From a virus (Duplodnaviria; Caudoviricetes): a DNA stretch of 27,990 nt. Of this stretch, positions 1 to 27,990 are shown one piece after another; within the stretch, counting starts at the first letter, position 1, and each line of letters begins with the position of its first letter. The notes under the pieces are model-generated. The model was not told the origin of the DNA and ran no database searches. It worked only from the letters and a program-made list of their open reading frames with translations. The translations under genes and the position numbers were made by a program. The DNA is taken from positions 1-27,990 of the IMG/VR virus record IMGVR_UViG_3300004369_000107; one strand, 5' to 3'.

Positions 1-80
1 ATTGATTTAACTGATCTTTCAGTAACCAGTAATGCAGCCTCAGGTGGAGGAGCATTAAGTTACAATAATACCACAGGTGT
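1..80. repeat. Terminal overlap: identical to 27911-27990 (and to 27797-27876)
   Basis: ATTGATTTAACTGATCTTTC...ACCACAGGTGT occurs at both ends of the window. This suggests a circular or terminally redundant assembly of ~27,910 bp, but the overlap lies inside a 114-bp tandem repeat. Confidence 0.9.
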
Positions 81-498
81 TTTTGGTTTTACACCACCTG
101 ATTTGACCAGTTATGGTACATTAAGCAATGTAGTTGAAGATACTACACCTCAATTAGGAGGCACACTAGATTGTCAAGGTAATACTGTTAGCAATCCGGT
201 ATTAAAAGATTATGCAGAAACCATTTACAGTTTAGGATCAACTGACACACCTACAATTACCATTTCAAATGGTAATGTACAATCAGTTACTATTACTTCA
301 GGTCTGTCATTACCTGCGTTTTCAGATGCAGCAACAGGTCAATCAGTTACACTAATAGTATCAGGTTCAGGTACAGCTACAGGTACAGCAGCATATAAAT
401 TTGCAGGCGGTAATACTACATTAACAACTTTAAGTGTTGTAAGCATTTTTTATAATGGTACTAATTACTTTGCTAGCATTGCAACAGATTTTCAATAA
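1..498 (+). CDS. C-terminal part of the virion fibre-like protein that starts at 27593 and crosses the junction
   Basis: Frame 1 is open from base 1 (IDLTDLSVTSNAASGGGALSYNNTTGVFGFTPPDLTSY), then EDTTPQLGGTLD and a beta-rich C-terminus (YKFAGGNTTLTT..VVSIFYNGTNYFASI). It is in frame with 27593 (27911-27593=318). The track's start at 103 is not the true start. Confidence 0.8.
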   Translation: MDLTDLSVTSNAASGGGALSYNNTTGVFGFTPPDLTSYGTLSNVVEDTTPQLGGTLDCQGNTVSNPVLKDYAETIYSLGSTDTPTITISNGNVQSVTITSGLSLPAFSDAATGQSVTLIVSGSGTATGTAAYKFAGGNTTLTTLSVVSIFYNGTNYFASIATDFQ

Positions 499-507
499 GG
501 AGTAGAT

Positions 508-2526
508 ATGCCATTAGGAGCAGCAAGACTAACACTATTAGCATTTCAACCCACAGTTGCGGTAGGAGCAGAAGTCATTCGCAAGAAAGTTGGGATATTT
601 TCAAACGGAGTAGACATTGCAACAGCAGACAGCAAATTTGGCGGTTCAAGTATATTTGTTAATAACACCAGTTCCACAGACAATGTTGAAATAGATGATG
701 CATCAAACACACAATTTAGATTAGGATCTACTTTTACTATAGAAGGTTGGTTCAAACCTGGACTAACAGGAGATAGATTTTGGAGTTTTAAAGGTGTTAA
801 CACCTCCAACGGTTTTGGTTTAGGCATTAGTAGTAATTGGATTATTTTTAGACACGCAGGTACAACAGATCTAAAATATTCAAGATCAGACAGTAATTGG
901 CAACACATAGCATTTGTGTCAGATGGAACCAACAAACAAATATATTACAATGGTAGTCAGGTAGCAACTACAACTGCAACTTTGAATATCACTGACACAA
1001 CCAATCTAAGAATAGGTAATGAACTTACAAATTCAACTTTTGGATACTATGGTTATATTGATGAAGTGCGTATTTCCAACACAGCAAGATATACTGGTTC
1101 TTATACAATACCTACAGCACCATTCGTCAATGACGACAACACACTACTATTGCTACACATGAACGGCACAGATGGTTCAACTTATTTTGAAGATGACAAT
1201 GGTGTAGGTAGGAGTGCAGTTGGGGTATCGGCTTTAGGCAATGCACAGGTAGACACAGCACAATCTAAGTTTGGTGGGGCAAGTGCTACATTTGATGGCA
1301 CTGGTGATTATCTACAGGTTCCTTATTCATCAGACTTCCATTGGAATTCCGGCGACTTTACTATTGAATTTTGGATTAGAACAAACTCCACACATTCATC
1401 AACAGTACCACCTACAATTGGTATGATGAATCCCACTACTGGTTTAAATTATTGGAGTTTTGGTGTTGATAATAACAATCTACTTGAATTTTATTATTTT
1501 AACGGCAGCACAGTATCTGTAGTTGGTAGCACAACTATATCTACAGCCGTTTGGCATCATGTTGCAATGACTTATAGAAGCAGTAATAATACTATCAAAC
1601 TTTGGCTTAACGGCACGAATGAAGTCAGTGCAACTGTTAGTGGAACTCCTCAATTTACAACCTATGGTGCTATTCCAGTAACTATTGGACAATATAATAA
1701 TGTTGGTTTTAATGGACATTTAGACGAAATTAGGATTTCCAACACCCGAAGATATACCAGTAATTTTACAACAGCGTCTGTTCCGCATGTAAATGACTCA
1801 AATACGCTACTATTATTGCATATGGATGGCAGTGATACATCAACAGACTTCCGTGATGACAATGGTAAGGATAGATACCCATTGCCTATACAAGCATTAT
1901 CAGATACCCAAATTTCGACCACAGCCTCTAAATTTGGAGGTACCAGCATTAAATTTGTTACCTCAGGTAGTTATGCAGAGGTAGTTGCCGCTGAATCGCC
2001 TGCATTTGGCAGCGGTGAATTCACTATAGAATTTTGGTTATATTATACAGCCATACCAACCACTGCCGCTAGTATGCTTTGGGATCAACGCCCAGGCTCA
2101 AATGGTGCTTACCCATTGATATGGACTGAAGGTAATAGCAAAGCAAATATAAATTACTTCGTATCAAGTTCAGCAAGGATAGCTACTGGAGCAGTTTTGT
2201 CAGCTAATACATGGCATCATGTGGCTATAACTAGAGATTCATCAGCTGACCATAAATGTTATGTTGATGGGGTAAAACAAGGTGCAACCTGGAATAGCAC
2301 AACGAGTTATCTCGCAGGTAGATTAAGGATTGGTGCTAATATGAATGGTGTTAATATTGTTCCTGGTTATATGGATGAAATCCGTGCTAGCAGTGTATGT
2401 AGATATACTGCAGCCTTCACACCGCCTTCAGCACCATTCCAAAATGATGCAGATACAATATTATTGCTACACGGTCATGGATCAAACACAAATACCTTCT
2501 TGTTAGATGATAATGGGTTTTATTAA
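508..2526 (+). CDS. Virion adhesin with three tandem LamG/concanavalin A-like lectin domains
   Basis: Three repeats of SKFGG.S ... FTIE.W ... W.H.A ... G.(I/L/M)DE.R.S...RYT..FT....PF.ND..T.LLLH..G. AAGGAG RBS upstream. Confidence 0.85.
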   Translation: MPLGAARLTLLAFQPTVAVGAEVIRKKVGIFSNGVDIATADSKFGGSSIFVNNTSSTDNVEIDDASNTQFRLGSTFTIEGWFKPGLTGDRFWSFKGVNTSNGFGLGISSNWIIFRHAGTTDLKYSRSDSNWQHIAFVSDGTNKQIYYNGSQVATTTATLNITDTTNLRIGNELTNSTFGYYGYIDEVRISNTARYTGSYTIPTAPFVNDDNTLLLLHMNGTDGSTYFEDDNGVGRSAVGVSALGNAQVDTAQSKFGGASATFDGTGDYLQVPYSSDFHWNSGDFTIEFWIRTNSTHSSTVPPTIGMMNPTTGLNYWSFGVDNNNLLEFYYFNGSTVSVVGSTTISTAVWHHVAMTYRSSNNTIKLWLNGTNEVSATVSGTPQFTTYGAIPVTIGQYNNVGFNGHLDEIRISNTRRYTSNFTTASVPHVNDSNTLLLLHMDGSDTSTDFRDDNGKDRYPLPIQALSDTQISTTASKFGGTSIKFVTSGSYAEVVAAESPAFGSGEFTIEFWLYYTAIPTTAASMLWDQRPGSNGAYPLIWTEGNSKANINYFVSSSARIATGAVLSANTWHHVAITRDSSADHKCYVDGVKQGATWNSTTSYLAGRLRIGANMNGVNIVPGYMDEIRASSVCRYTAAFTPPSAPFQNDADTILLLHGHGSNTNTFLLDDNGFY

Positions 2527-2537
2527 AGGAATAAGGA

Positions 2538-5500
2538 ATGGCTGAATATTATATAGAAGCTGGTTATATTGATCCCGCTTATTTTGAAAGACAGATTGAT
2601 TCAGGTACCATCGCAGTAACCTCAGCATTCTCACCAGTTTTTACGGTAGATATTGCAGATGACACAGGATACTTCATTCCTGATTATATACAAGTAGATT
2701 ATATTGCTGCTGCAGTAACAGAAGCCGCTGCCGATATAACAGCTTCAGCTACAGTAGCTGCAACAGTAGGAGTACAAAAACCATTTACAGTTGACATCGG
2801 CGCCGCCTGCACCATCGCAATTGCAGGTTCAAGGACCAGGTCGGATTCAGCTGACATAACCAGTCAAGCCACTGTAACAGCCACAGTGTTTAGGTCACAA
2901 GATTTTGCAGCAGCCATTAGTGCCAGTAACACCCTTGCATTAACAGCCGTACGGATACGGAATTATTCAAGTGATCTCACTGGATCAGCCACTGCGGCTG
3001 CGGTAATTGGTGTCAAAAAACCATTTGCTGCAGTTGTAACCACCGCTTTTGCCTGTGACCCCACTGTTTCAGTAATCACTGACACCACCGTTTCCTTAAA
3101 TACCCTCGTAACACAAACTGTTGTAATTGGTAAACTAGAAGAAATTTCACTTGCACCTGCTTTTGTGGCCAGTCTAACCTTGTTGGCTGGTCTCTTAGAA
3201 ACAGGTACAGCTATCATCAGCTCCACAGCGGCCCTAACAGCTACAGCCATAGAATATCGCACAAGGGCAGTAGATGGAATAGGTAATAGACCAATCAATT
3301 GGACAGCTTATTATCCAAACACCTCTAATCCTGTCGCATTACCTACCATAGATTTTGCATTTGATACCTCAGTCTATAAGTATGGTACAGCCAGTTTAAG
3401 GATTAAAAATGATAACTACACTGATCCTTATGCTAGTGTAAGCACTGACAGTTTATTACCCTCAGGTCAAACCACCTATGATTTTGCTGCACAGAATGAA
3501 GATTTTGTTGTAGAATTTTGGTGGCGTAGGAATTTATCGACTAGTGGTACCGGGACTGAACCAGTTATATTTTGGATAGGTAATGCTAACCAACAACCTA
3601 CTCAAAGGTCTAGTTTCACCATTTCTAATAGTGGTGATCGTTTCATCATGGGTATGATAGAAGATGTTTCATACAGGAGATTAGGACTTTATTATTGGGA
3701 TGCCGATAAAACTAGATACAGTTTAGATACCAGTCTCAATAGTTTTCCTAGTTCCAACAACACATGGTATCATATTGCAGTACAAAGAGCAGGTTCAACC
3801 TTAGCAGTAAAATTAAATGGATCCACAATTGCAAGTACTACATTCTCCAGTCAATTTAACCAATTCAGCGGTTTAAAAAATAGATTTAATATTACACAAG
3901 GTTACAGTTTAAGTGGTACATCAAGTGTAGGTGTATACTTTGACAGCATACACTATGCAAGAGGGGATTCCACAATCCGTGGACTCAGCGCTCATCCTTA
4001 TAACACAGAAGATACTGTTTTCTTAGCCAGTTTTGACAGTGTTCTCACTGATGATTTAGCCAACTTCACATTAGAATACACGGCCACAGCGGCCACAACT
4101 GCAACCTTAACTGCTGGTGCAACAAGAGCAGTAGCAGGTAGTGCTGATTTAACAGCGAACTCGGTCCAGGCAGCGGAGGTCAATAAAACTGTTACCACAA
4201 CAGCAGCCGTTGACGGTGCGGTAACCATTGCAGTCTCTGCTGCGAGATTGAGATCCACTGACACGGCCAGTGCGGCTGAATCAACACTAGCAGCCACAGC
4301 AGTGAGGATAAAACAGTTATCAACACCGATGAGCACCCAAGCGGCTGCCGAGATTGCGCCTGTTAAAACTGCCAGCACAGGTGCAGTCGTTGACGCCGTC
4401 ACCGTTTTAACTGCCACTGGATACCGAACACAAGAAACGGTTTTAACTGCATTTACTGATGCAGCGGTCACTGCTGCACCTGTGGTTACTAGATCTGGTT
4501 CCAGTGACAGCACAGTTACGGCCAGTGTCAACGCTACAGCAGTGAGGATAAAACCATTGGCTGCCTCAGTGTTAGCTGAGTTCAGTACCACAGCCGCAGC
4601 TGAATCAAATAGACTGTTCTTCAGTGACCAGACCTCAGTCAGCTCCGTGAGTGCGAGTGCGTCAAGGACTAGAGATACCGGATCTGATCACCTAGTCGTG
4701 TTTACACAAGCGGTTACGGCTAATAATCTTGGTGTTATTGAAGCCGTAATAGCCGGTGTAACCGAGATAACTGCGGATCCGCAGAGGATAAGGACCACAG
4801 ACGCAGAAGTGTCTGTCACAGCTGACAGTTCAGCCACAGCCACAAGGATTCGACCTGGCTCAGCTGCGGTCACCACGGTTTCCACAATCCTAATCGCAGC
4901 GGTTAAGACTGCTGTTACAGGATCCACACCGAGTGCCGAATCGGTTTCCTCGGCAACTGCGACAAGGATCCGCAGTTTTGAGTCTGTTCAGTCAATTCTA
5001 GCCACTGTGACTGCCACAGGTAGTAGACAAGGTGTAATAGAATTAACTGCATTCACCACGGCCAGTATTACTGCAGTACCTGAGATCACAAGATCAACAC
5101 CTGCTGATTTATCCACGGTAACACAGGCCGCGATCTCAGCAGTTAAACGGGTGTCAGCACTGAGTCAAGCGGATTCTGTAGCCACCGCAACCACAGCACC
5201 CGTAAAAACAGCCAGTGCACAGGCAGTGTTCTCTGGAGCATTTTCACCTGTATTAACAGCCTCAGTGACAAGGCGAGGTTTGGTTGCGGTCACAGTGACG
5301 ACTGAATTAACCGCCACTGCCGGAGTAACAAGACTGTTTGACTCAGCTGCGGTCGTCGAGAGCACACTAGTGATCACAGCTGGTAAACTGGTGTCAGCTC
5401 AAGTCACCATAGATTCAGCAATGACATTTACAAGTGCAATCCGTGACCTAAGGATTGAAACCGTAAGTTATAAGATACCTGGTGAAACAAGACTTTATCA

Positions 5501-5570
5501 AATAGTGGGTGAATCAAGACTGCGTTCGATTGCAGGCGAAACCCGAATATTCCAAATTAATCAATATTAA
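2538..5570 (+). CDS. Ala/Thr-rich repetitive fibre-like virion protein with a central LamG-like domain
   Basis: 1010 aa. Short ~19-20 aa Ala/Thr/Val repeats (e.g. TLAATAVRIK) flank a LamG-like core (YKYGTASL...DFVVEFWW...TWYHIAVQR...FDSIHYARG). AAGGA RBS. Confidence 0.75.
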   Translation: MAEYYIEAGYIDPAYFERQIDSGTIAVTSAFSPVFTVDIADDTGYFIPDYIQVDYIAAAVTEAAADITASATVAATVGVQKPFTVDIGAACTIAIAGSRTRSDSADITSQATVTATVFRSQDFAAAISASNTLALTAVRIRNYSSDLTGSATAAAVIGVKKPFAAVVTTAFACDPTVSVITDTTVSLNTLVTQTVVIGKLEEISLAPAFVASLTLLAGLLETGTAIISSTAALTATAIEYRTRAVDGIGNRPINWTAYYPNTSNPVALPTIDFAFDTSVYKYGTASLRIKNDNYTDPYASVSTDSLLPSGQTTYDFAAQNEDFVVEFWWRRNLSTSGTGTEPVIFWIGNANQQPTQRSSFTISNSGDRFIMGMIEDVSYRRLGLYYWDADKTRYSLDTSLNSFPSSNNTWYHIAVQRAGSTLAVKLNGSTIASTTFSSQFNQFSGLKNRFNITQGYSLSGTSSVGVYFDSIHYARGDSTIRGLSAHPYNTEDTVFLASFDSVLTDDLANFTLEYTATAATTATLTAGATRAVAGSADLTANSVQAAEVNKTVTTTAAVDGAVTIAVSAARLRSTDTASAAESTLAATAVRIKQLSTPMSTQAAAEIAPVKTASTGAVVDAVTVLTATGYRTQETVLTAFTDAAVTAAPVVTRSGSSDSTVTASVNATAVRIKPLAASVLAEFSTTAAAESNRLFFSDQTSVSSVSASASRTRDTGSDHLVVFTQAVTANNLGVIEAVIAGVTEITADPQRIRTTDAEVSVTADSSATATRIRPGSAAVTTVSTILIAAVKTAVTGSTPSAESVSSATATRIRSFESVQSILATVTATGSRQGVIELTAFTTASITAVPEITRSTPADLSTVTQAAISAVKRVSALSQADSVATATTAPVKTASAQAVFSGAFSPVLTASVTRRGLVAVTVTTELTATAGVTRLFDSAAVVESTLVITAGKLVSAQVTIDSAMTFTSAIRDLRIETVSYKIPGETRLYQIVGESRLRSIAGETRIFQINQY

Positions 5571-5580: not shown

Positions 5581-5910
5581 ATGGCTATCCGTTCAGGTTT
5601 TGAACAAACAATACAGGGCTTGACAATCCAAAAAGATACTGAAGCCCAACTAATTTATACATTTGATTGGAGTGAATGGTTACCCGAAGGGGATACTATT
5701 AGCACCAGTAATTACACAGTTACAGCTAGATCTAATGACCCAGATCCATTAGCAATTGAATCACAAGGTTTAAGCGGTGACAACACCTATGTTGAACTAA
5801 GTAATGGACAAGAAGGCAAGACATACACAGTTACCTGCCAGATAACCACAGGAAATGGCCTAATTGACAGGAGGAATTTCCGTGTAAAGGTACTTGCTCG
5901 GAGTGCATGA
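5581..5910 (+). CDS. Putative fibre-tail adaptor protein (109 aa)
   Basis: AAGGAG at 5569-5574 precedes ATG 5581, a better start than 5509. The motif KD.EA.L.YTFDWSEWL.EGDTI...G.TY.VTCQITT..G...R.F is one I recognise from phage fibre adaptor proteins. Confidence 0.6.
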   Translation: MAIRSGFEQTIQGLTIQKDTEAQLIYTFDWSEWLPEGDTISTSNYTVTARSNDPDPLAIESQGLSGDNTYVELSNGQEGKTYTVTCQITTGNGLIDRRNFRVKVLARSA

Positions 5911-6158
5911 TGAGTTTAGAAGATGAAAGTACAGATCTAAAGTTGCACACTCATCTTTGCTCAGAAAGATATAAAGGCATCCATGATCAGATGCACAATA
6001 TTGATCAACGGATAGATAAAATAGAGCATAAAATAGATACACTGCACAATACTATTATTGAGCAAGGTAAAGCAATGCGTAATACATTAATATTTGCTAT
6101 GCTTACTATTACAGCGAGTTTAATAAGCATTATAGGAGTATTACTCAATGGTTCCTAA
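5907..6158 (+). CDS. Small coiled-coil protein with C-terminal transmembrane helix (XhlA/holin-like architecture)
   Basis: L..H..LC.ERY motif, heptad segment (IDQRIDKIEHKIDTL), then hydrophobic LIFAMLTITASLISIIGVLL. Confidence 0.6.
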   Translation: MMSLEDESTDLKLHTHLCSERYKGIHDQMHNIDQRIDKIEHKIDTLHNTIIEQGKAMRNTLIFAMLTITASLISIIGVLLNGS

Positions 6159-6324
6159 ACTGATACAACAGGCTAGACTAGAGATCTGTCATCAGTGTGA
6201 ACACTATCAGAGTAGATTTGGTCAATGTGGTGTATGTCATTGTTTTATGGTATTAAAGACAAGACTAAATGGAGCAGAGTGCCCCAAGAAAAAATGGTTA
6301 AAATATGCAAAAAGATCTACATGA
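6148..6324 (+). CDS. 58-aa Cys-rich Zn-binding protein (DUF6171-like), absent from the ORF track
   Basis: AGGAG at 6134-6138, ATG 6148. Translation MVPKLIQQARLEICHQCEHYQSRFGQCGVCHCFMVLKTRLNGAECPKKKWLKYAKRST has the pattern RL.IC..C...C..C.CF...K......CP..KW. Confidence 0.75.
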   Translation: MVPKLIQQARLEICHQCEHYQSRFGQCGVCHCFMVLKTRLNGAECPKKKWLKYAKRST

Positions 6325-6613
6325 TCAACAAGTACGGGAATGGTTTAAAACCCGTCGGACCACAAATCCAACACTGCCAATTGATTGTGTTCGATTAAAA
6401 GACCAATCACGGATATGTGAAGATTGTGGAAAACGATTACCAGCACAACGGATAGTCCGTATTAGCCAGCGTACATGGCCAGAACGACATTGGCATCACT
6501 ACTGTGAAGCCTGTCGTTGTTATAGAGATCCAATAACAGGTGAATACTCAATACCATATGGTGATAGTGACCGATTTAATCGTTATTTAGATAAAAATTG
6601 GCAACGGAGATAA
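6305..6613 (+). CDS. Hypothetical Zn-ribbon protein
   Basis: CEDC...CEAC pairs, Arg-rich, 102 aa. Confidence 0.65.
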   Translation: MQKDLHDQQVREWFKTRRTTNPTLPIDCVRLKDQSRICEDCGKRLPAQRIVRISQRTWPERHWHHYCEACRCYRDPITGEYSIPYGDSDRFNRYLDKNWQRR

Positions 6614-6616
6614 ATA
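6609..6616 (+). promoter_or_regulatory. Candidate T4-type late promoter GATAAATA
   Basis: Matches NATAAATA. It overlaps the stop of the upstream ORF and sits just before a structured non-coding segment. Confidence 0.5.
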
Positions 6617-6620
6617 CGAG

Positions 6621-6723
6621 TGCAGGATGATTCACTATGTTTACTGCCATTAGCATAGTGGCTTTTTCAAGCTCACGAAAAAGTTAAACTCCCTGGATAC
6701 CCCTTATCCAATTGCATCCTGTG
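6621..6723 (+). ncRNA. Candidate four-way-junction structured RNA (or ssDNA)
   Basis: Closing stem TGCAGGATG (6621-6629) / CATCCTGTG (6715-6723) encloses three hairpins: CACTATGTT/AGCATAGTG, CTTTTTC/GAAAAAG and TGGATA/TATCCA. Confidence 0.55.
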
Positions 6724-6801: not shown

Positions 6802-6835
6802 TTTACAAACAGTTTTTTTTAATATATAATAAATA
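6802..6835 (+). promoter_or_regulatory. Near-consensus sigma70 promoter overlapping a late-type ATAAATA
   Basis: TTTACA (6802-6807), 17-nt spacer, TATAAT (6825-6830). A-tract upstream (6791-6798). ATAAATA at 6829-6835. Confidence 0.7.
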
Positions 6836-6853: not shown

Positions 6854-7183
6854 ATGGAAACAGATTTTACACGACACAAACAAATTGATCCAGAACAGAT
6901 CTCAGCGCATCCAGTACGAGTGGATCTAGAACTGTTGTTACGGATTAGACAACAGTTTTGGCGTGAGATGACGAATCATCAGCGTGGTCAATGGGCTGCA
7001 TATTGGGACCGTGTATATTTTAAACAAAGACCATTAAAACAGGCATTTTTACAGGCACTAGCAGAAACAGTCAATCAATTCGCAGGATCTAAAAGGCAAC
7101 AAAGGCAACCGAGGCAACAAAAATCCACTGCCGATATCGTGGCTAAAACAGTGGACACCTGTCAATCTCCTCCTTGGGATTGA
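6854..7183 (+). CDS. Hypothetical protein (109 aa), probable early gene
   Basis: AGGA RBS, directly downstream of the sigma70 promoter. No family recognised. Confidence 0.7.
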   Translation: METDFTRHKQIDPEQISAHPVRVDLELLLRIRQQFWREMTNHQRGQWAAYWDRVYFKQRPLKQAFLQALAETVNQFAGSKRQQRQPRQQKSTADIVAKTVDTCQSPPWD

Positions 7184-7545
7184 CACCGACAGGTGGCGCC
7201 TGGACTACCTCCCAGTACACTAGTACAGTAGGTGAGAGTTATACATAGTCAAGCTTCTCTCAGAAATGTCACAAGGAGTCGTCAAGAGCAGTAATACTGC
7301 CGCTCCATCGACGATGTGCTAATGGTAACAGCATCGGGTGCACGAGCACCTTTTTTTTGTGATGGCTGTTACATTAGCCATCGTTTGACTTCAACTCCAT
7401 GTCTCAATTAGATACTAACTCGATTACAGAGTATCACTTGCGATAGCAAATTCCAAGTTGATATCAACTGACAGTTGAACGAAGTGAAACTGACAGATTG
7501 ATTCAACGCAGGAAGGACGGCGTAGCTGGACTTGGAGAATCAATT
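7156..7545. other. Non-coding, hairpin-dense region; candidate origin or structured RNA
   Basis: Inverted repeats include CACCTGTC/GACAGGTG, TGTCAATCTC/GGGATTGACA, TGAGAG/CTCTCA, a long hairpin at 7311-7384, the palindrome GTTGATATCAAC (7457-7468), a hairpin at 7463-7502 and CGGC-GTA-GCTG. Confidence 0.6.
7336..7358 (+). terminator. Rho-independent terminator-like hairpin
   Basis: GGTGC-ACGA-GCACC followed by T8. Confidence 0.6.
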
Positions 7546-7572: not shown

Positions 7573-7668
7573 ATGACCGAAGAATCAAATCAAATTGGCC
7601 GTGTAACACTCGATAATTCGTGTGTGAGCGGGCCGGAATCGTTTACCCTAGAACTGGAGACCCTATGA
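7573..7668 (+). CDS. 31-aa mini-ORF whose N-terminus duplicates that of 7832..8116
   Basis: AAGGA RBS. Translation MTEESNQIGRVTLDNSCVSGPESFTLELETL. The stop overlaps the next ATG (ATGA). Confidence 0.45.
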   Translation: MTEESNQIGRVTLDNSCVSGPESFTLELETL

Positions 7669-7835
7669 AAAACCGATTAGTCACCTGGCGAGTTCGCCAT
7701 GCAAATGGTACGGTGATAGAGATGTCACTGCCCAAGATGGCGAGAAGTCGGGTGAAGGCCATAGTGGAGGCTGATGCCCGGTCCACGGGTACCCGTGTCG
7801 TGTTCTTCACTGATCGGCCGCTTGGACCGGTATGA
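7665..7835 (+). CDS. Hypothetical protein (56 aa, MKNRLVTWRVRH...)
   Basis: GGAG RBS and an ATGA-coupled start at 7665, preferred to GTG at 7620. The stop is ATGA-coupled to the next ORF. Confidence 0.6.
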   Translation: MKNRLVTWRVRHANGTVIEMSLPKMARSRVKAIVEADARSTGTRVVFFTDRPLGPV

Positions 7836-15388: not shown

Positions 15389-15402
15389 CATAAGGAAAAG
15401 AG

Positions 15403-15876: not shown

Positions 15877-15883
15877 TAAACTG

Positions 15884-15914: not shown

Positions 15915-15930
15915 CACAAGGAACGGACAG

Positions 15931-20124: not shown

Positions 20125-20687
20125 TGGCTATAGATCTTTCAGCTTATCCAGAAATACAAACAAACATGTTTGTTAGACTGGACATACCAGATTATGCGGT
20201 ATTATATTTCAGTGATTATCATCGCAGTTACTCATTTGGTGGCAATACCTACGATGGAATAGGTCAATTATTATCAATTTCAAATACAGATGACAACCTT
20301 AGGGCCAGTCCTAATGAAATTACCTTAGGCATCACGGGTATACCAACGGGTAACATTTCTGATGTATTAAACAATCCTGTTAAAGGCAGCCAATGTGATA
20401 TCTACAGGGGATTTTTCTCAGTGACAACAGGAGATCTATTACCAATCTCAGGTAATCCTGCTGGTTATTTCCGTGGTGTTGTTAGTAACTATGATATAAC
20501 TGATGATCTAACCATGGGTGCATCAACAGGTACACTCGCACTATTGTTAATGCTTACTAATGTAGTAGGTTTATTAAACAATAAGATCGCAGGAAGACGC
20601 ACGAATGCCAGTGATTTTACCAATGGTGATATGGCCAGGGTATTACCACTGCAGAAAAGCAACTTCCAGTTTGGAGCACCACGATGA
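20124..20687 (+). CDS. Putative tail tip or baseplate hub protein (gpL-like position)
   Basis: GNTYDGIGQLLSIS...ITLGITGIP...IYRGFF...F.G motif. Confidence 0.65.
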   Translation: MAIDLSAYPEIQTNMFVRLDIPDYAVLYFSDYHRSYSFGGNTYDGIGQLLSISNTDDNLRASPNEITLGITGIPTGNISDVLNNPVKGSQCDIYRGFFSVTTGDLLPISGNPAGYFRGVVSNYDITDDLTMGASTGTLALLLMLTNVVGLLNNKIAGRRTNASDFTNGDMARVLPLQKSNFQFGAPR

Positions 20688-23600
20688 GTTTCTTACGAGG
20701 ATTAGCCACTGCGGCAAGTTTTATCGCCGGTGATAGCGTTTGGAGTAGCCTTGCAAGGACAGCTATCCTTGCATATGCTGTTAACCAAATGAACACCAAC
20801 ACTAATAAATCCAATGACACAGGCACAGAAAATATAGATCAAGGTGTTAGGCTACAAGCTAAACCTGATGCTACAGCACATATACCTGTTTTATATGGTA
20901 GTGCATATTTTGGTGGTAATATCAGTGATGCTGTGATGACCAATAATAACAAGACCATGTGGTACAGTCTTGTGTTAGCAGAAAGGACTGGTACGCTTTA
21001 CAGTTCAGGTGCAGCGACAGCATATACCTTTGATCGGGTATATTGGAATAACCAAAGGATAGTTTTCCAATCAGATGGTATTACAGCAGATTATACAGTA
21101 GACTCAACTGGAGTCGTTGATCGCAGCATAAGTGGATTGGTCAAAGTCTATCTATATGCCGGCAACAGTACCAGCACCAGTCAACAAGCACCCTCTGGTT
21201 CAACCATAACAGCAGCAAATGCTTATGATATTTTTCCAAATTGGACCAGTACTACCCATGCAATGGACAATCTCATATTTGCCGTAGTTAGGGTAGATTA
21301 CAATAGAGAAAAGGGTGTAACTGGTATAGGGGATATGTTGTATCAAGTTACCAGTTCAATGACACAACCAGGTGATGTATTCCGTGATTACATTACCTCA
21401 ACACGCTATGGTGCAGGTGTTGATTCAGCTGCGGTATCCACAACAGATGTTGCAGCATTAAACAGTTACAGTCTAGATAATATCAGTTATGATGATCAAG
21501 GAACAGGTGCTGAAACACTAGCTGACAGATATCAGATAAATGGTCTAATAGACACAGGCAACCCAGTACTGCAGAATGCAGAAGCCATACTGTCAGCTGC
21601 TGGTAGTTATCTCAGTTATGACACACATACGGGTCAATGGGGTATTGTAATTAACCGGACAGGCGCTTCAACGGCTGATTTTTCAGATTCAAACATACTA
21701 GGCACTGTAAGCATTTCCGGTACTGGTTTACAGGAATTGTATAATGAAGTAAAGGTTGAATTCCCACATAGAGAACTACGGGACTCGGCTGATTTTTATA
21801 ATATCAGTCTAAACAAAAGGAATTCAAATGAACCCACCAATGTACTTAATTTAAGATATGATATAATCAATGAACCTATCCAAGCCCAGATGTTGGCTTT
21901 GATAGAACTAAAACAAGCTAGGCTTGACAACATAGTTAAGTTTTCAACAGATTTTAGTTATTACAATCTCCGTGCAGGTGATATAATCACAGTAACTGAT
22001 TCACGACTTGGTTTAAGTTCAGCAACATATAGGATAGTTAACATTGGTGAGCGCCAGGACAATCAGGGCGCATTACAGATGGATATAACTGCAATACAGT
22101 ATGATGCAAACATATATTCATTTGCAGACCTTTACAGATTTACAAGATCAGATGATGATGGTATTGTTACAATAGGTAGTATAGGCACACCTGGTACACC
22201 TAGTGTATCCAAGATAGAACAAGACTCAAGACCTAGATTGGAAATTACCAGTAATTCACCAACAGGTGTAGTAGAAGGATTAGAATATTGGTTAACCACT
22301 GATGTTGGTGAAGCCGATGATGATCTAAGGAGCTATACATTAATTGGCACAAGGAGACCAGAGGGTGGTGGAGTATTCACTAGTGGTACTGCAGTTACAT
22401 TAGAATACACAACATCAGCTAGCGATTTCTATGTGAAAACCCGTGGTGTTAATACTACCACAACAGGACCTTTCAGTGCGGTTAGTGGACTAGTAGAATT
22501 TGAACCAGTACAAACAACACAGGCTATTGATTCAAATACCAGCATGTTTGATGAAACTGGTGCATTATTAACTGGACTAGCACTAGTAAATCTTGCCAGT
22601 AAACTGTTGGATCTATTTGGTGTAGGTAATGATGACAAGAGTTTGTTTGATCAGATATTTGATACATTTGAGGAAGAAACTGGAACAGACCTAGTTGGAC
22701 AAGCCACGGATGGCACCTTGGTTGTGGCCGGCGATCTAGAAGTAAAAGACTCAGGGACGAGTCTTGGCCCAACCACTGCAAGCATTGATTTTACAGGTGG
22801 ATTAACAGCATCAGGTAGTTCGACGATTACCGTACAGATGAAATCCGGTACTGGTTCAAAACAGATCCTAGCATGGGACGACACGGCAGGTGAATATAGG
22901 ATACTAGATGCAGCTGGCTGTTTATCAGGTTGTGATTTCATTGAAGAACCAGAACCACCAACACCAGCAGTACCTTGTAGTTTAACTATCGCTAATTTAT
23001 TACCTGCAAGTTCAGGTACAAGTACTGAATCAGTTTGTAAATTAAATCCTAGTGTACCATATACAGGTAGTTATTTTATTACCTACAGTATCGATCCTGG
23101 AACTGCTGAAGGTGGTGCTGCTAATCCTGCTATACCTTTTTATGCACCAATACAAGCAGGTATTGGAAACATTTATCTTTATGGATCAGATGGTTCATTA
23201 GAACAAACACTAACAGAATCAGATCTCATAATCCATAACAATGTAGTTGAATTACCATTTGCTGACAGGACACCGGGTAAAGACTATTATATATTAATAG
23301 AAGAAGGTGTTGTTACAAGTTGTAGTTGTGAAAACGCAGCCGTTGAGGACTGCACAACCTGGAGTTTTTATACCAGTACCAGTCCACAAGCTGAATTTAC
23401 ATATACAGCTGGTGATTTAACTGACGCAGAAACCTCTGATACTGTTTATGCTGAAGTTTTAACCTGTGATTCAATCAGCTTGGCTGGAACAGGTATTTGT
23501 GCCAGTACTGCAGAACTAAGTTTAGTATTTTCAGAAAACATACAGGCAGGCACAGGTTCAGTCCTCATTAAAGATAGACTCACAGGCACAACTGTTAGAT

Positions 23601-24364
23601 CATTGTCAATTGGATCAGCTAACATCTTTGAAGACACTGTTGATTTTGGTCTAGTAACTGGCTTATCGGACAATACAGAATATGATATTGTGGTACCAGT
23701 GGGTTTAGTTACAACAGCAAGGATCAGTACTGTTGTCACTGTTTGTGATGTTACAGTTACCTATCCACCAGGACCAACACTAAACAATCAATTGCGTACA
23801 GGTGGTTTTAAAACAGATATCACACTTGAATTAGTCAGTGTAGATTTATGTTATGAAAACTCAGGTTTAGTCAGTAGACGCAGTAACATAAAATTAACAT
23901 TTAATAAAGCGATCACCGCCGGTGCCACAAGTGAAATATCAGTATTAGAAGGCTCTGGTTTTTCAAGTAAAACACATCAAAAGATAGATTTAAATGCTAC
24001 ATTTGCCGCAGACGGTGTTTGCAGTTTATTTTCAATATCAGGTACAGATTTATATTTGAATCCAACACTTGCATTTAGATCAGGCGAACAATATCAAGTA
24101 TATGTACCTGCTGATGCAGTACAGGATTCATGTGGTGTTGGTAATACAGCTATAACAACTGACCTTTTCCAGGTAGATAGGATAGAAACAGCACCAACAA
24201 CAGCTCCTGTTTATGGAAGTGTTTATGTTGATTTTGAATTCCGTAGACCAGTTATACCAGGTCGAGGTAAGATACACATTATCAATTCAACAACAGGCGA
24301 ATTATACACCAGTATATCAGCTGGCGATCCTGAAGTAGTATTCAGCGAAACAAGATTTACATAA
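20684..24364 (+). CDS. Tail tip attachment protein (gpJ-like) with C-terminal Cys-rich Ig-like repeats
   Basis: IPVLYG, RYGAG, RYQINGLIDT, YNEVKVEFP, L.AGDIITVT and ITAIQYDANIY core. C-terminal L.L.FSENI.AGTG.V.I and IKLTFNKAI.AG repeats resemble SbsA/Big_5 Ig-like domains. Confidence 0.8.
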   Translation: MSFLRGLATAASFIAGDSVWSSLARTAILAYAVNQMNTNTNKSNDTGTENIDQGVRLQAKPDATAHIPVLYGSAYFGGNISDAVMTNNNKTMWYSLVLAERTGTLYSSGAATAYTFDRVYWNNQRIVFQSDGITADYTVDSTGVVDRSISGLVKVYLYAGNSTSTSQQAPSGSTITAANAYDIFPNWTSTTHAMDNLIFAVVRVDYNREKGVTGIGDMLYQVTSSMTQPGDVFRDYITSTRYGAGVDSAAVSTTDVAALNSYSLDNISYDDQGTGAETLADRYQINGLIDTGNPVLQNAEAILSAAGSYLSYDTHTGQWGIVINRTGASTADFSDSNILGTVSISGTGLQELYNEVKVEFPHRELRDSADFYNISLNKRNSNEPTNVLNLRYDIINEPIQAQMLALIELKQARLDNIVKFSTDFSYYNLRAGDIITVTDSRLGLSSATYRIVNIGERQDNQGALQMDITAIQYDANIYSFADLYRFTRSDDDGIVTIGSIGTPGTPSVSKIEQDSRPRLEITSNSPTGVVEGLEYWLTTDVGEADDDLRSYTLIGTRRPEGGGVFTSGTAVTLEYTTSASDFYVKTRGVNTTTTGPFSAVSGLVEFEPVQTTQAIDSNTSMFDETGALLTGLALVNLASKLLDLFGVGNDDKSLFDQIFDTFEEETGTDLVGQATDGTLVVAGDLEVKDSGTSLGPTTASIDFTGGLTASGSSTITVQMKSGTGSKQILAWDDTAGEYRILDAAGCLSGCDFIEEPEPPTPAVPCSLTIANLLPASSGTSTESVCKLNPSVPYTGSYFITYSIDPGTAEGGAANPAIPFYAPIQAGIGNIYLYGSDGSLEQTLTESDLIIHNNVVELPFADRTPGKDYYILIEEGVVTSCSCENAAVEDCTTWSFYTSTSPQAEFTYTAGDLTDAETSDTVYAEVLTCDSISLAGTGICASTAELSLVFSENIQAGTGSVLIKDRLTGTTVRSLSIGSANIFEDTVDFGLVTGLSDNTEYDIVVPVGLVTTARISTVVTVCDVTVTYPPGPTLNNQLRTGGFKTDITLELVSVDLCYENSGLVSRRSNIKLTFNKAITAGATSEISVLEGSGFSSKTHQKIDLNATFAADGVCSLFSISGTDLYLNPTLAFRSGEQYQVYVPADAVQDSCGVGNTAITTDLFQVDRIETAPTTAPVYGSVYVDFEFRRPVIPGRGKIHIINSTTGELYTSISAGDPEVVFSETRFT

Positions 24365-24374: not shown

Positions 24375-27008
24375 ATGGCAACAGTAACAGGAACAGCAAA
24401 ATTATATGATTCAGTCACGCTTAGACTGGTAGAAAATATCCAACCAGCGGTGTTTAGCACCACTTGTACAGTGGCAGCAGTTCCAACTGTGCTTAGAGGA
24501 TATACACAAACAGTTACACAAAAACCAACAGCGGTTACCAGTTTGTCAGTGGCCGCTGATTATCTTTATAAAGGTGGAGTAGCAGATCTTGAATTTTCAG
24601 CTACCCTTAGGAATTATACGGCTACCCATATCAGGATTGATATAGCGGCATTAATTGCTAGAGGATTACCAGAAGGTACACCGTTAACTTTTGTAATGGA
24701 AGAAGACTGGCTAAGAGAAGATCAAAATAAATTACCATCTAGTTTAGGATTATCTATTCCTCGAGATGACAGTTTCTATACAATGCGTACACCAATATAC
24801 CTTAACGCAACTCAATTCACAACGAGCAATTTCAGTTTAACTGCAGATAATACAAGATTAAAATTTGGTAGCGTGTCAGCGGATTCAGCATTTACTCCAG
24901 TGATGACTGTGGTAGCTACAAGGAATGTGGAAACAGAATTAATCGCAACCATTACACAATCCACAACAGCTAATTATACAGTTGGGAGTAACACAGCTGA
25001 TATACTCTCATTTGCAGTATTTGTTCGATCAAAACCTACTCGCATACTACAATTTGAGTCTGATTTCACCACAGTTACAACCAGTTTAACTGCTGATAAC
25101 ACAAGGTTAAAATTTGGTTATCTACCAGCAGTGGTTACCTCTGCCGTGTCCAGTTCAGCCATTAGGTATCCAGGCATACTAGAAGACTTGGCTGTGGTAT
25201 CAACAACGGACTGTACACCTATTGTGTTCTCAGAAGCCGGTGCAGCCATTGAATCTTCCGGTACCCTCAGCATAACAGCGACGAGGATAAGACCAGGTGC
25301 CAGCACAATGTCCACGGCTTCAACACAAACAGCAACGGGTAGCGTTCCAATGTTTGAGACATTAACTAATTTTGCAGGTGATTTCAGTCTTTATTTTGGT
25401 GGAGATGTTGATATTGAAGTAGATTGGGGTGATGGTACTGTAGAAACTTATTCACAAACACAAGATTGGACCACTGTAACTGATGCTAATTTATTTGAAG
25501 TATCACATACATACACAACCTCTACTACAAAAACAGTCTCAATCTCGGGATCAGCTGAAGTTGTTTCAGGATATACAGGTGTTAGTACTGTTAGTGGAGC
25601 CGACTATACAAGGGCCACAGCTTGGGGTGAAATCCGACCTTTATGGTTATACAAATGGGGTGGTAATTTAACCAGTACAGGTGCAAACAGGGTACTGTCA
25701 GGTATATTACCCGGTGAAATACCCTCAAGTGTAACCAGTTTACGATCAGCATTAACAACCGTCAGTTGGTATACAGGTAATCCATGGGCTAACATAGGCG
25801 ATTGGGATACCAGTCAGGTAACAGACATGTCCAGTTGTTTTGCTGGCACTGCATTTTATATTAAGAGTCACAACATCAGCACATGGGATACCAGTTCAGT
25901 TACCACAATGGAGGCAATGTTCTCAGGTAACAATGCTTATCCCAATTACAGTTTAAATTCCTGGGATACCAGCGCAGTTACTACAATGAAACAGATGTTT
26001 AAAGATAGCAACTTAACCAGTACAACTCAAATTGATTCATGGAATACCAGTGCAGTTACTGACATGAGTCAAATGTTCCAAAATACACAATTGAAAATCG
26101 AGTTAGATATTGCCAGTTGGAACACTGGTGCAGTTACCGATATGAGTTATATGTTTGACAATGGTACAATGTTTGCAATCGATCTCAGCACATGGAATAC
26201 TGTTTCGGTAACCAATATGCAAGCGATGTTCCGTGATACTGGCAATTTTAATTCAGATCTAAGCAGTTGGAACACTGGTTCAGTAACTGATATGAGTCAA
26301 ATGTTTAAAGGTTCAGACTACAGTAACACAGGTGTTACACAGAGAAATATCAATACTTGGAATACCAGTAGTGTTACTACAATGAGTCAGATGTTTGAAT
26401 CATCAACCGCAAGACTCTTGTCATTGAATTCATGGGATACCAGTGCAGTTACCAACATGTATAGGATGTTTGCATTTACCAGTGATTTAGATCCTGTTGT
26501 TGCAAATTGGGATACCAGTGCAGTTACCACAATGGAACAAATGTTCGTCGGTGCAGATCAATTTGATCATGCGATCGGCACATGGGATACCAGTAGTGTA
26601 ACCACGGCTGAGTCAATATTCAATGACGCAACAGTATTCAATCAAGATATCAGTGGATGGGATCTGACAGGTATCAGTACACAGGAATATATGTTCTACC
26701 AGGCAACAGCTTTTGACCGAGATTTAACTGGTATAGCATTTGATTGGTCTACGGCATTTGATGGAGACAGCATGTTCTATCAATCAGGTATGGGACAAAC
26801 AGCAATGGATAGAACCATAATATATATAGCAAACAGGATATATCAACAAGCTACAACACCTCCAGCTGGTGTGATAGGTTTACCTAATGGATATACAGCA
26901 TCAAGTACCACATTTACACATGCAACATACACCCAATTTACCGATGCACAGTCTGCCTTAACATATCTGTCTGGACAAAGTTGGACGATTACATATTCAC
27001 CTGTATAA
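24375..27008 (+). CDS. Adhesin-like virion protein with PKD-like domain and BspA/DUF285 repeats
   Basis: VDWGDGTVETY...SHTY, then 12 repeats of (I/L)xxW(D/N)TSxVTxMxxMF. The N-terminal Ala/Thr repeats resemble those of 2538..5570. Confidence 0.85.
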   Translation: MATVTGTAKLYDSVTLRLVENIQPAVFSTTCTVAAVPTVLRGYTQTVTQKPTAVTSLSVAADYLYKGGVADLEFSATLRNYTATHIRIDIAALIARGLPEGTPLTFVMEEDWLREDQNKLPSSLGLSIPRDDSFYTMRTPIYLNATQFTTSNFSLTADNTRLKFGSVSADSAFTPVMTVVATRNVETELIATITQSTTANYTVGSNTADILSFAVFVRSKPTRILQFESDFTTVTTSLTADNTRLKFGYLPAVVTSAVSSSAIRYPGILEDLAVVSTTDCTPIVFSEAGAAIESSGTLSITATRIRPGASTMSTASTQTATGSVPMFETLTNFAGDFSLYFGGDVDIEVDWGDGTVETYSQTQDWTTVTDANLFEVSHTYTTSTTKTVSISGSAEVVSGYTGVSTVSGADYTRATAWGEIRPLWLYKWGGNLTSTGANRVLSGILPGEIPSSVTSLRSALTTVSWYTGNPWANIGDWDTSQVTDMSSCFAGTAFYIKSHNISTWDTSSVTTMEAMFSGNNAYPNYSLNSWDTSAVTTMKQMFKDSNLTSTTQIDSWNTSAVTDMSQMFQNTQLKIELDIASWNTGAVTDMSYMFDNGTMFAIDLSTWNTVSVTNMQAMFRDTGNFNSDLSSWNTGSVTDMSQMFKGSDYSNTGVTQRNINTWNTSSVTTMSQMFESSTARLLSLNSWDTSAVTNMYRMFAFTSDLDPVVANWDTSAVTTMEQMFVGADQFDHAIGTWDTSSVTTAESIFNDATVFNQDISGWDLTGISTQEYMFYQATAFDRDLTGIAFDWSTAFDGDSMFYQSGMGQTAMDRTIIYIANRIYQQATTPPAGVIGLPNGYTASSTTFTHATYTQFTDAQSALTYLSGQSWTITYSPV

Positions 27009-27051: not shown

Positions 27052-27059
27052 AATAAATA
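27052..27059 (+). promoter_or_regulatory. Candidate T4-type late promoter AATAAATA ahead of the fibre gene block
   Basis: NATAAATA preceded by a T-tract, the same context as at 12880. Confidence 0.65.
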
Positions 27060-27129: not shown

Positions 27130-27537
27130 ATGTCAGCAGCAAGTGATTATTTAGAAAATAAAGTACTGGACCATGTTTTAACCAGTACCGGTTACACAGC
27201 ACCAGTCACAAGATATATTGGTTTATTCCTTAATACCAGTGGTAATGCCGCTACTAATCTTGAAGCAGGTACTTTAACTGATGAAGTTTCAGGTGGAAGT
27301 TATGCAAGACAAACTGTTACCTTTGGCGCAGCTTCAGCCGGTCAATCAGCTACCAATGCAACAGTAACATTTACAACAGCTACTGCTAACTGGGGAACAA
27401 TTACCCATGTTGCTGTAATGGATGCCGTATCTGGAGGTAATGTTTTGTTCTGGGGTGCAGTAACAACAAGTAAAACTATCGAAACCGGTGACACATTCCA
27501 AATTAGCTCAGGTAATTTAACAATTAGTTTAGCTTAA
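27130..27537 (+). CDS. Small structural protein (putative fibre or tail-decoration subunit)
   Basis: SDYLENKVLDH...Y..LF...EVSGGSYARQ.VTF...F..AT..WGTITH..V.DA.SGGN.LF.G.....KTI..GD.F motif, which I recognise from phage virion modules. Strong AAGGAG RBS and its own terminator. Confidence 0.75.
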   Translation: MSAASDYLENKVLDHVLTSTGYTAPVTRYIGLFLNTSGNAATNLEAGTLTDEVSGGSYARQTVTFGAASAGQSATNATVTFTTATANWGTITHVAVMDAVSGGNVLFWGAVTTSKTIETGDTFQISSGNLTISLA

Positions 27538-27550
27538 TCTACCGATTCTA

Positions 27551-27577
27551 GGGTGGCTTAGGTCGCCCATTTTTTTT
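27551..27577 (+). terminator. Rho-independent terminator
   Basis: GGGTGGC-TTAG-GTCGCCC-A followed by T8. Confidence 0.8.
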
Positions 27578-27592
27578 AATAAGGAATAAAAC

Positions 27593-27990
27593 ATGGCTAC
27601 GATAGTTTTAAGGAGTGTTAAAGGCAGTGCATTAACCTTTGCAGAAGGTGACAGCAATTTTAGCAATCTTAACACTGATAAAATAGAATTAACTGATCTT
27701 TCAGTAACCAGTAATTCAGCCAGTGGTGGAGGAACTTTAAGTTATACTGATAGCACAGGTGTTTTCAATTTTACACCACCTGATCTTACCAGTTATATTG
27801 ATTTAACTGATCTTTCAGTAACCAGTAATGCAGCCTCAGGTGGAGGAGCATTAAGTTACAATAATACCACAGGTGTTTTCAATTTTACACCACCTGATTT
27901 GACCAGTTATATTGATTTAACTGATCTTTCAGTAACCAGTAATGCAGCCTCAGGTGGAGGAGCATTAAGTTACAATAATACCACAGGTGT
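27593..27990 (+). CDS. N-terminal part of the junction-spanning fibre-like protein (about 271 aa if circularised with three repeats)
   Basis: AAGGA RBS. Translation begins MATIVLRSVKGSALTFAEGDSNFSNLNTDK, then 38-aa repeats. No stop before the window end. Confidence 0.85.
   Translation, partial: MATIVLRSVKGSALTFAEGDSNFSNLNTDKIELTDLSVTSNSASGGGTLSYTDSTGVFNFTPPDLTSYIDLTDLSVTSNAASGGGALSYNNTTGVFNFTPPDLTSYIDLTDLSVTSNAASGGGALSYNNTTG
27683..27990 (+). repeat. 114-bp (38-aa) coding tandem repeat
   Basis: Units start at 27683, 27797 and 27911, and the last continues into 1-114. Unit sequence I(D/E)LTDLSVTSN(A/S)ASGGG(A/T)LSY...TGVF.FTPPDLTSY. Confidence 0.92.

Follow-up and report, generated by a model that had tools for sequence, protein, structure and literature searches.

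A 28-kb siphophage genome with T4-type late boxes and a likely dependence on a co-infecting jumbo phage

How would a phage genome that encodes a full particle, and no recognizable polymerase or sigma factor, have its genes read and its DNA copied? The question is raised by the window, the whole stretch of 27,990 nt analysed here, which is a 28-kb siphophage genome with a full virion set. An earlier note had ascribed to it its own terminase, capsid and tail, and matches to PHROGs and Pfam profiles confirm this for TerS, TerL, portal, scaffold, capsid, tail completion, tape measure, distal tail, hub, tip and fibre proteins, while the tail tube, connectors and chaperone gave no profile match and are identified from position only. 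The 34 genes called with a simple purpose-made caller all lie on the + strand (34/34), as previously stated. The features are as follows.

27593..27990, +, N half of a tail-fibre gene with 114-nt repeats, crossing the join (phrog_9729)
1..498, +, C half of the tail fibre, same gene as 27593..27990
508..2526, +, protein with three LamG/ConA domains, likely receptor-binding, swapped in other strains
2538..5570, +, long Ala/Thr-rich fibre-like protein with one LamG domain
5581..5910, +, gp77-like fibre-tail adaptor (PF23148, E 8e-21)
5907..6158, +, coiled coil and C-terminal hydrophobic helix, weakly XhlA/holin-like (phrog_1193, E 1e-5 to 3e-3)
6148..6324, +, small Cys-rich ORF, DUF6171-like
6305..6613, +, four-Cys zinc-ribbon protein (in 15/17 genomes)
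6610..6616, +, late box ahead of the small RNA
6622..6723, +, predicted multi-hairpin small RNA
6802..6835, +, fused promoter, sigma70-type -35/-10 overlapping a late box
6854..7183, +, family-specific all-helical ORF, candidate initiator judged from its place only
7128..7530, +, conserved structured non-coding element, candidate origin or RNA
7587..7839, +, 253-nt block with direct repeats at both bounds, missing in three other strains
8109..8115, +, late box ahead of small ORFs, terminase and portal
8122..9187, +, four small ORFs including an HNH-like one at 8300-8644 (HNH-like in 13/17 genomes)
9184..9579, +, small terminase (phrog_309)
9581..10807, +, large terminase
10816..12267, +, SPP1-type portal
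12246..12650, +, endonuclease VII-like (in 7/17 genomes)
12880..12887, +, late box, full TATAAATA, before the scaffold gene (conserved in 17/17)
12921..14475, +, scaffold and major capsid protein
14487..16953, +, connectors, tail tube (15403-15876), small coiled-coil ORF, chaperone, tail completion
16955..24364, +, tape measure, distal tail, hub, tail tip
24375..27008, +, DUF285 repeat protein
27053..27059, +, late box ahead of the fibre block
27130..27537, +, gp80-like fibre protein (PF23140, E 2e-40)

The endonuclease VII (12246-12650), the HNH-like ORF (8300-8644) and the weakly XhlA/holin-like ORF (5907-6158) were absent from the earlier reading; the last of these is the only lysis candidate in the window. 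Neither tRNA nor tmRNA genes were found in the window.

The family to which the window belongs is large, with 308 tail-tube matches in IMG/VR and genomes of 26-35 kb from marine and fresh water. One of the closest known phages, DSL-LC06 (OR003941; PMC10611076), of the proposed 'Nanhuiviridae', is described in the available text as a 29.8-kb circle with 42/44 annotated genes on one strand; its capsid and TerL are 45% and 52% like those of the window, and it bears 7 sense late boxes and no replication gene in its own annotation. It differs by another tail module and by a long branch in the portal tree, and the accessible parts of its paper (PMC10611076) mention neither the box nor helper dependence.

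In the window, the earlier note had recognized no polymerase, helicase, integrase, sigma factor, repressor or endolysin, and profile searches likewise returned no match to any of these or to a primase. Profile scans of relatives, covering 104 of 112 ORFs (7 long tail-like ORFs and 1 spanning two sequence pieces being omitted) and 53 of 54 cluster representatives of at least 75 aa (1 left out), revealed no sigma factor, polymerase, integrase or endolysin in these further ORFs, and no endolysin was found in any family genome scanned. Late-sigma profiles, in a search that included a positive control, matched 0/12 family records and 3/3 jumbo records. The absence of replication genes among relatives, proposed earlier as a check, holds for polymerases in the further ORFs and fails for the complete relative G003, which encodes a primase and an SF3-like helicase. 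Across 17 near-complete genomes, only virion and packaging genes are present in 17/17, the commonest other genes occurring in 15/17, 13/17 and 2/17.

Could the missing genes lie elsewhere, on a larger genome of which this contig is a part, falsely closed at a tandem repeat? The IMG/VR record is classed as having direct terminal repeats, and the 80-nt end repeat sits in a tail-fibre gene, inside its 114-nt tandem repeat, so that the repeat alone is little proof of closure. The 114-nt loop was seen in three sequencing runs, and a contig end in run X10 matches window positions 27659-27688, ahead of the repeat; none of the sequencing-run contigs listed spans the whole join, and none of the runs listed is an RNA sequencing run containing the window. 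Against false closure, the tail-fibre gene is split by the window ends with its N half at the end and its C half at the start, and both halves form one gene in 9/16 other genomes. The distance from the gp80-like to the gp77 gene over the join is 6.4 kb, compared with 1.8-8.3 kb in relatives (15/16 measurable). The longest family contigs in contig scans measure 30.5, 31.9 and 34.9 kb, none above 36 kb was found in contig searches, terminal repeats occur in 8/17 genomes and the DSL-LC06 circle was PCR-checked. The closed genome proposed earlier is thus very likely, short of proof, on account of the split gene, the join distance and the sizes of relatives, and a larger genome holding replication and sigma genes is very improbable.

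The earlier note also held that ATAAATA heads the gene blocks. In the window alone its count is not above chance (5 sense and 1 antisense copies vs 8.4 expected, only 1 of them the full TATAAATA), yet all 5 sense boxes sit at gene boundaries, each heading a unit. Among the 17 near-complete genomes, 90 sense copies stand against 3 antisense where 61 and 87 are expected, and 81/90 sense boxes lie outside gene interiors. Conserved placement among relatives, which the earlier note had proposed to check, was found ahead of the scaffold gene in 17/17 and of TerS in 11/15, compared with 0/17 for capsid, 0/15 for tube and 0/12 for tape measure as control genes. This conservation and placement argue that the motif is real despite its chance-level count in the window. 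The gap from box to ATG is 5 nt in 18/26 family cases, 10/14 jumbo cases and 1/8 in two pelagiphages, and the small-RNA stem begins 4-5 nt behind the box in 24/35, which fits a -10-only promoter as described in the available part of PMC2988020. Judged by sequence, the motif has the layout of a T4-type late promoter, with a -10-only box before late genes and a start a few nt downstream. It also resembles in sequence an archaeal or eukaryote-type TATA box, which would be read by the host; the start then lies at about 25 nt, whereas starts here lie 5 nt behind the box, and the sigma70-type promoters and SAR11-phage relatives indicate bacteria, so that this reading is hardly conceivable.

In cyanophages and the jumbo phages CBB/GAP32, NATAAATA or ATAAATA without a -35 element precedes structural genes, according to the accessible text of PMC2988020, PMC2984593 and PMC5259590; the box is the same, but those phages encode the sigma factor and this family does not. 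From the available part of PMC5259590, CBB pairs the ATAAATA box with a gp55-like sigma, and neither a gp33 nor a gp45 homologue was detected in it, hence the gp33 and gp45 that the earlier note took to be required need not apply. Since no non-virion gene is universal in the family, the reader of the box is likely supplied from outside. We infer that the window phage likely depends on a co-infecting T4-like jumbo phage of ~370 kb, whose gp55-type sigma would read the five boxes, with a probability of about 0.65. This reading draws on the universal box, its jumbo-like 5-nt spacing, the lack of a universal non-virion gene, the absence of a sigma factor from the genomes searched and DNA shared with gp55-encoding jumbos; it retains the gp55 parasitism proposed earlier and corrects its replication part, its gp33/gp45 requirement and its novelty.

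Under such dependence, the particle would infect through its own tail, and host sigma70 would transcribe only ORF 6854 and the structured element behind it, or a few small ORFs in other members. Once the jumbo late sigma appears, all virion units would fire. Copying of the DNA would start from the structured element, with enzymes of the host or the helper (a few members bring a primase-helicase), the phage's own terminase would package it, and the helper would lyse the cell wall. As the least certain step, the late small RNA might dampen helper mRNAs with AUG-GCA starts, e.g., those of tail tube, sheath and baseplate genes.

The DNA shared with jumbos includes a ~550-nt non-coding element common to 7/17 genomes and ~370-kb T4-like jumbos; the window is without it. 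A 17-mer from family members occurs at 120 loci (65 in jumbo-type context, 4 family, 51 unclassified). The jumbo-type element was found in 20/48 loci, the element profile having been trained on 63 loci with a few family copies among them, and family copies, 63-77% like their nearest non-family copy, do not form one group. Five big jumbo-type records, 21-33% complete at 86-120 kb, encode a gp55-like sigma, gp47, UvsX/UvsY, SSB and sheath, and a SegE-like gene is common to jumbos and 2/17 family genomes (47-53%). No cultured phage in INPHARED carries the window's element or the jumbo element, only the SegE-like gene being matched, and Rfam gave 0 matches at gathering score on 6 sources and 2 weak chance matches on 7 element loci. 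In 2/2 records the skew reaches its minimum no more than about 5 kb from the jumbo element; as it tracks gene direction, this was rejected as origin evidence. The shared DNA is a sign of shared host and gene flow, not of dependence. A broader proposal would make the whole family obligate hyperparasites of ~370-kb jumbos, a bacterial virophage counterpart taking the late sigma for all particle genes, using the repeatedly captured jumbo element as an origin for the jumbo replisome and silencing jumbo tail genes with the small RNA; we regard it as possible and rather doubtful. Counting against a helper are the absence of the jumbo-type element from the window, the common sigma70 sites and the G003 primase-helicase, and the helper reading gives no account of how an integrase-less free particle meets its helper.

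The main rival is an autonomous small lytic siphophage, replicated by the host and expressing its late genes via an unrecognized small activator or a host alternative sigma, with jumbo-like DNA gained by recombination in shared hosts. Its sister group, the HTVC111P-type pelagiphages, has counterparts of the window's capsid, terminase and portal (50-58%, 43%) and forms a clade apart from the family in a portal tree, a quick version without bootstrap. According to the part of the source available (10.1101/2019.12.14.876532), their genomes of ~32 kb encode a homologous head and packaging module and no DNA polymerase, yet these phages were isolated on SAR11 strains; cultured polymerase-free phages thus make a missing polymerase no proof of dependence. 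The sigma70 promoters, candidate initiators and G003 replication genes also speak for autonomy, as does the zinc ribbon, present in 15/17 genomes and Ogr-like in layout, which might be an activator; many small ORFs without match could conceal another, and members could use unrelated ones. However, the zinc-ribbon ORF 6305 is missing in G003 and DSL-LC06, both complete and box-bearing, is the last gene of a late unit and matches no activator by profile or fold (none to Ogr/Delta among matches listed). Folds of ORF 6305 and ORF 6854 gave no informative match, an absence that is no evidence of novelty. The early region of the pelagiphages, moreover, is divergent, and they encode HTH regulators, a DnaD-like protein and a lysozyme, all absent in the family, or a peptidase in place of the lysozyme; they bear no placed box, whereas the family has the exact jumbo box and spacing, and its scanned genomes encode no endolysin. 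We consider autonomy unlikely, if a serious contender.

Host-type signals are nonetheless present. The earlier note had recognized only T4-type transcription signals, which is contradicted by a sigma70-type site at 6802-6830 (11/12 matches) fused to the box at 6829. Strict sigma70 sites number 28 sense and 2 antisense in 14/17 genomes, and 3/17 genomes have none. Behind the fused promoter, ORF 6854 and the element 7128..7530, with covarying hairpins, a T-run, mini-hairpins and alternative pairings, make up a candidate initiator and origin. This arrangement and the conserved late small RNA are new here. That replication is all borrowed, as earlier claimed, agrees with the lack of replication matches in the window and is weakened by this candidate region and by G003. 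The fused promoter and alternative pairings would also fit a facultative partner that persists by means of host enzymes, either as a slow phage or as a plasmid-like episome, at little cost to the jumbo, whose late sigma would only boost particles, and satellite-plasmids are known in marine Vibrio from the accessible text of 10.1101/2025.10.10.681744. No partition, repressor or toxin-antitoxin gene is recognized, no relative was found among GTDB genomes, so there is no sign of a prophage state, and strict sigma70 sites fail in the three genomes above; this partnership is improbable.

Returning to dependence on a jumbo, the small RNA at 6622..6723 (-33.3 kcal/mol, z -5.3) has a closing stem and a loop with UGCCAU, and its profile finds copies in 12/17 genomes while missing the window's own divergent copy. 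The loop could pair with AUG-GCA starts. The pairing is not specific: sheath and tube starts fall at median rank 15-26 of 212, one tube at 95, and 6/642 own starts also fit; self-avoidance of GCA at codon 2 was not seen (60/124 vs 51% elsewhere). Mimicry of tRNA-Gly/Asp anticodons by two loops is a weaker idea, because these loops comprise 6 or 10 nt when folded and are variable at base 32. Most of 120 hits in a gapped pattern scan were chance on inspection, and the estimate of 490 was dropped, as was candidate L291, which proved false; a reverse-strand peptide behind the UGCCAU loop had no conserved frame by eye.

If dependence is true, hundreds of siphophage genomes from marine and fresh water, 26-35 kb long and ordinary in appearance, would belong to jumbo-phage parasites instead of free phages. 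Jumbo phages would then be under an additional level of control, and the culture resistance of such genomes would be accounted for. Satellite finders, which search for genomes short of virion genes, would always pass over them; a promoter signature would pick them up. The ~550-nt shared element and the small RNA merit study under any reading. No paper treating the family as helper-dependent was found in the literature searched, most subscription papers lying outside its scope.

In encoding virion proteins, the window agrees with the definition of a satellite virus. Virophages of giant viruses likewise make their own particle and carry their helper's late promoter signals; their hosts are eukaryotic and their genes unrelated, which leaves an analogy only. 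P4, PICI, cf-PICI and PLE have an integrase, reside in the chromosome and borrow a tail or whole virion, whereas the window has its own tail genes, no integrase match and no GTDB copy. As described in the available parts of 10.1101/2022.04.08.487710 and PMC13595925, the PLE of Vibrio cholerae parasitizes a large lytic phage, its activation is tied to helper transcription and its conserved small RNA SviR lowers helper translation, a likeness by description; unlike the window, PLE is an integrating element that uses the structural parts of its helper. The I55 island, moved by jumbo JPTI55, is also a jumbo-phage satellite, but the accessible text of PMC12772148 describes an integrating island in helper capsids, the opposite division of labour. 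The earlier note had presented an own particle without replication genes as a new, reversed logic. This is already known: the available text of PMC10690885 reports encapsidation genes and no replication genes for MiniFlayer and MulchRoom, and that of PMC13587820 extends this to Phanie. Like the window, MiniFlayer, MulchRoom, Ando and Phanie have their own capsid and packaging genes and lack key replication genes; their helpers are virulent, and MiniFlayer, as the window, is without integrase. According to the same accessible sections, they encode no long tail and rely on the tails of their helper or on short fibres with which they hold on to it, whereas the window, unlike MiniFlayer and MulchRoom, encodes tape measure, distal tail, hub and tip. 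The accessible text of PMC10690885 describes no promoter mimicry ('promoter', 0 hits), and dependence of the MiniFlayer type is reported there from culture, that of the window being inferred.

The window, 27,990 bases long, is a virus record that IMG/VR assigns to its terminal-repeat class, and its 80-nt end repeat is nested within a 114-nt tandem repeat of the tail-fibre gene. The record ends split this gene, leaving the C half at the window start and the N half at the window end. Since the halves form one gene in 9 of the 16 other genomes compared, gene order across the join is the same in relatives and family searches found no family contig above 36 kb, the window is very likely a closed genome, as the earlier note had supposed. 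No contig or read bridging the whole join was found among the sequencing-run contigs compared with the window. All 34 called genes lie on the + strand, as that note had also observed. Profile searches confirmed the terminases, portal, scaffold, capsid, tail completion, tape measure, distal tail, hub, tip and fibres, whereas tail tube, connectors and chaperone were assigned from position; the complete virion module proposed earlier thus holds by profile for most parts but not all. The absences read from the sequence were borne out, no polymerase, helicase, primase, integrase, sigma factor, repressor or endolysin being matched in the window. A 253-nt block (7587-7839), flanked by direct repeats and duplicating a gene start, is missing from strains of three other runs. 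In other strains a shorter unrelated gene replaces the LamG gene (543-2537), a swappable and likely receptor-binding cassette.

Capsid comparison placed HTVC111P-type pelagiphages (54-58%) nearest among cultured phages; the assembled genome DSL-LC06, described in part of PMC10611076 as a new family, is also among the nearest. A tail-tube search recovered 308 relatives in IMG/VR and none in GTDB genomes. We compared 17 complete or near-complete genomes (the window, 15 IMG/VR records and DSL-LC06; 8 with terminal repeats); of their 648 called genes 3 run against the rest, and only virion and packaging genes are universal. A quick portal tree built from 48 rows groups 20 box-bearing rows, window included, on one branch (support 99); pelagiphages fall within a separate 22-row branch, and DSL-LC06 and five further rows lie outside both. 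Among tube-defined relatives, tail tubes share 57-82% identity and capsids (window 13621-14475; L069-L148) span 24-73%; judged from this range, capsid genes are swapped within the family. Loci L001 and L002 have an 80% capsid yet an otherwise distant portal. In DSL-LC06 a glycosyl- and methyltransferase cluster occupies the variable region (L067:1732-9017), and its record lists no replication genes, though a passage of PMC10611076 states them in all genomes.

ATAAATA occurs 6 times in the window, fewer than the 8.4 expected, but all 5 sense copies (6610, 6829, 8109, 12881, 27053) head a unit, so the claim that it heads gene blocks stands on placement and not on number. Its placement proved conserved in relatives. 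In overlapping sets, coding versus other strand counts were 115 to 6 (80 loci), 149 to 10 (48 loci) and 90 to 3 (17 genomes; expected 61 and 87). The box precedes scaffold in 17/17 genomes, TerS in 11/15 and the gp80-like gene in 9/16, and internal control genes in 0/17, 0/15 and 0/12. In 26 cases an open frame begins no more than 15 nt after the box, and 18 of these have a 5-nt gap. Together these patterns mark the box as a genuine promoter-like signal. The T4 late promoter is described as a single box at the -10 position (excerpt of PMC2988020) and the cyanophage one as NATAAATA (excerpt of PMC2984593); the relevant section on jumbo phage CBB reports ATAAATA and a gp55-like sigma, with gp33 and gp45 undetected (PMC5259590). 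A coiled-coil ORF of 57-60 aa between tail tube and chaperone (15931-16110; 15/17 genomes) has its own late box in 9/14. A separate 29.7-kb lineage (L050 / G011) carries 6/6 boxes on one strand, so this way of life may not be confined to the clade of the window.

Late-sigma profiles matched 3/3 jumbo records and 0/12 family records, and a further 104 + 53 non-core family ORFs yielded no sigma, polymerase, integrase or endolysin. The commonest non-virion genes encode a zinc ribbon (15/17), an HNH-like protein (13/17) and ORF 6854 (2/17); the zinc ribbon is absent from two complete box-bearing genomes, and its fold comparison gave no informative match. Because the box is universal and no family genome set holds a universal reader, the evidence points to a reader from outside. 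Strict sigma70 sites (28 sense, 2 antisense) occur in 14/17 genomes, and the complete genome G003 encodes a primase and an SF3-like helicase (L233:1528-4082); the family is therefore variably equipped for replication and uniformly unequipped for late transcription. The expectation that relatives lack replication genes thus holds for the universal genes but fails in G003, a genome with no zinc ribbon, HNH-like, gp77 or gp80 gene. A small ORF in G003 (L233:430-702) and G006 (L240:3830-4111) may resemble a protein common in large aquatic T4-like phages.

The best explanation, at a probability of roughly 65%, is that a jumbo-derived late sigma would read the family boxes and that the virion genes would depend on it; we infer this from genomes, and the literature searched gave no description of the family as helper-dependent. 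That these are autonomous phages is rather unlikely. Polymerase-free pelagiphage relatives have been isolated on SAR11 strains (10.1101/2019.12.14.876532, in part) and unmatched small ORFs could conceal diverse activators, but pelagiphages possess regulators, a lysin and an early region, none of which the family has.

A 17-mer probe from non-coding DNA of three family members matched ~630 IMG/VR stretches; among 120 listed, 65 had jumbo-type neighbours, 4 had family neighbours and 51 had too little flank. Five large holders (86-120 kb, 21-33% complete) imply full sizes of ~350-410 kb. Large holders encode UvsX, UvsY, SSB, helicase and tail sheath, and the box precedes 34 ORFs (61 sites), with the 5-nt gap in 10/14 jumbo cases versus 1/8 in pelagiphages. 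The match marks a ~550-nt element, about -500..+150 around it, at a fixed place in ~370-kb jumbos (L448, L461, L460; G016-G018), after gp55-like sigma, gp47, gp46 and a SegE-like gene, and with near-invariant unpaired blocks. It is present in 20/48 family loci and 7/17 genomes, absent from the window, and has no Rfam match; it is a candidate origin or novel large RNA. Family copies are 63-77% like their nearest non-family copy and formed a single group in 0/200 bootstrap trees, which suggests repeated exchange between family and jumbos. Such sharing of DNA is proof of common hosts but not of dependence.

In the window, a different structured element occupies the slot of the jumbo-type element, 3' of ORF 6854 (6854..7183), which is headed by:

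6802-6835: fused promoter, sigma70-type site plus box

The fusion recurs in several of 14 relatives shown. The 118 homologues of ORF 6854 all come from contigs shorter than 33 kb, and the ORF has an all-helical structure model whose fold comparison gave no match. The structured element is conserved and has covarying hairpins (two-sided changes at 18/46 pairs, 8 sequences), a T-run and mini-hairpins; in window 7128-7395 and L581:1740-2005 its 3' block has two alternative partners, one 5' and one internal, in the manner of an RNA switch. From their place, ORF and element are a candidate initiator and origin.

A predicted late small RNA lies 3' of the zinc-ribbon gene in 56/70 loci (one judged false), as a box, a ~100-nt stem-closed multi-hairpin and a terminator; the window copy (6622-6723) has a fold z of -5.3. 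Its hairpins are modular and kept in relatives, e.g. L249:6956-7130. A search of 236 kb of jumbo DNA did not recover it. Predicted loops bear UGCCAU and CUGUCA, resembling tRNA-Gly and tRNA-Asp anticodon loops. The UGCCAU loop is complementary to A-AUG-GCA-(I/L/V codon) in 21/30 distinct copies, with a correctly spaced anti-Shine-Dalgarno stretch in 15/30. Of 214 jumbo starts it fits 5, and four of these belong to tube, sheath and baseplate genes; 6/642 of the family's own starts fit as well, and duplex ranks are unspecific. Pairing with helper mRNA starts is a possible lead, for which part of the PLE SviR report offers a precedent of small-RNA action on a helper (10.1101/2022.04.08.487710).

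The window falls outside P4, PICI, cf-PICI and PLE on their defining tests. MiniFlayer is described as securing co-infection by gripping its helper (section of PMC10690885); speculatively, the window's large swappable LamG and repeat proteins could act likewise. The window would operate much as the bacterial satellite viruses MiniFlayer, MulchRoom, Ando and Phanie do, yet it stands outside that group: a full long tail is encoded, and the predicted dependence is on late transcription.
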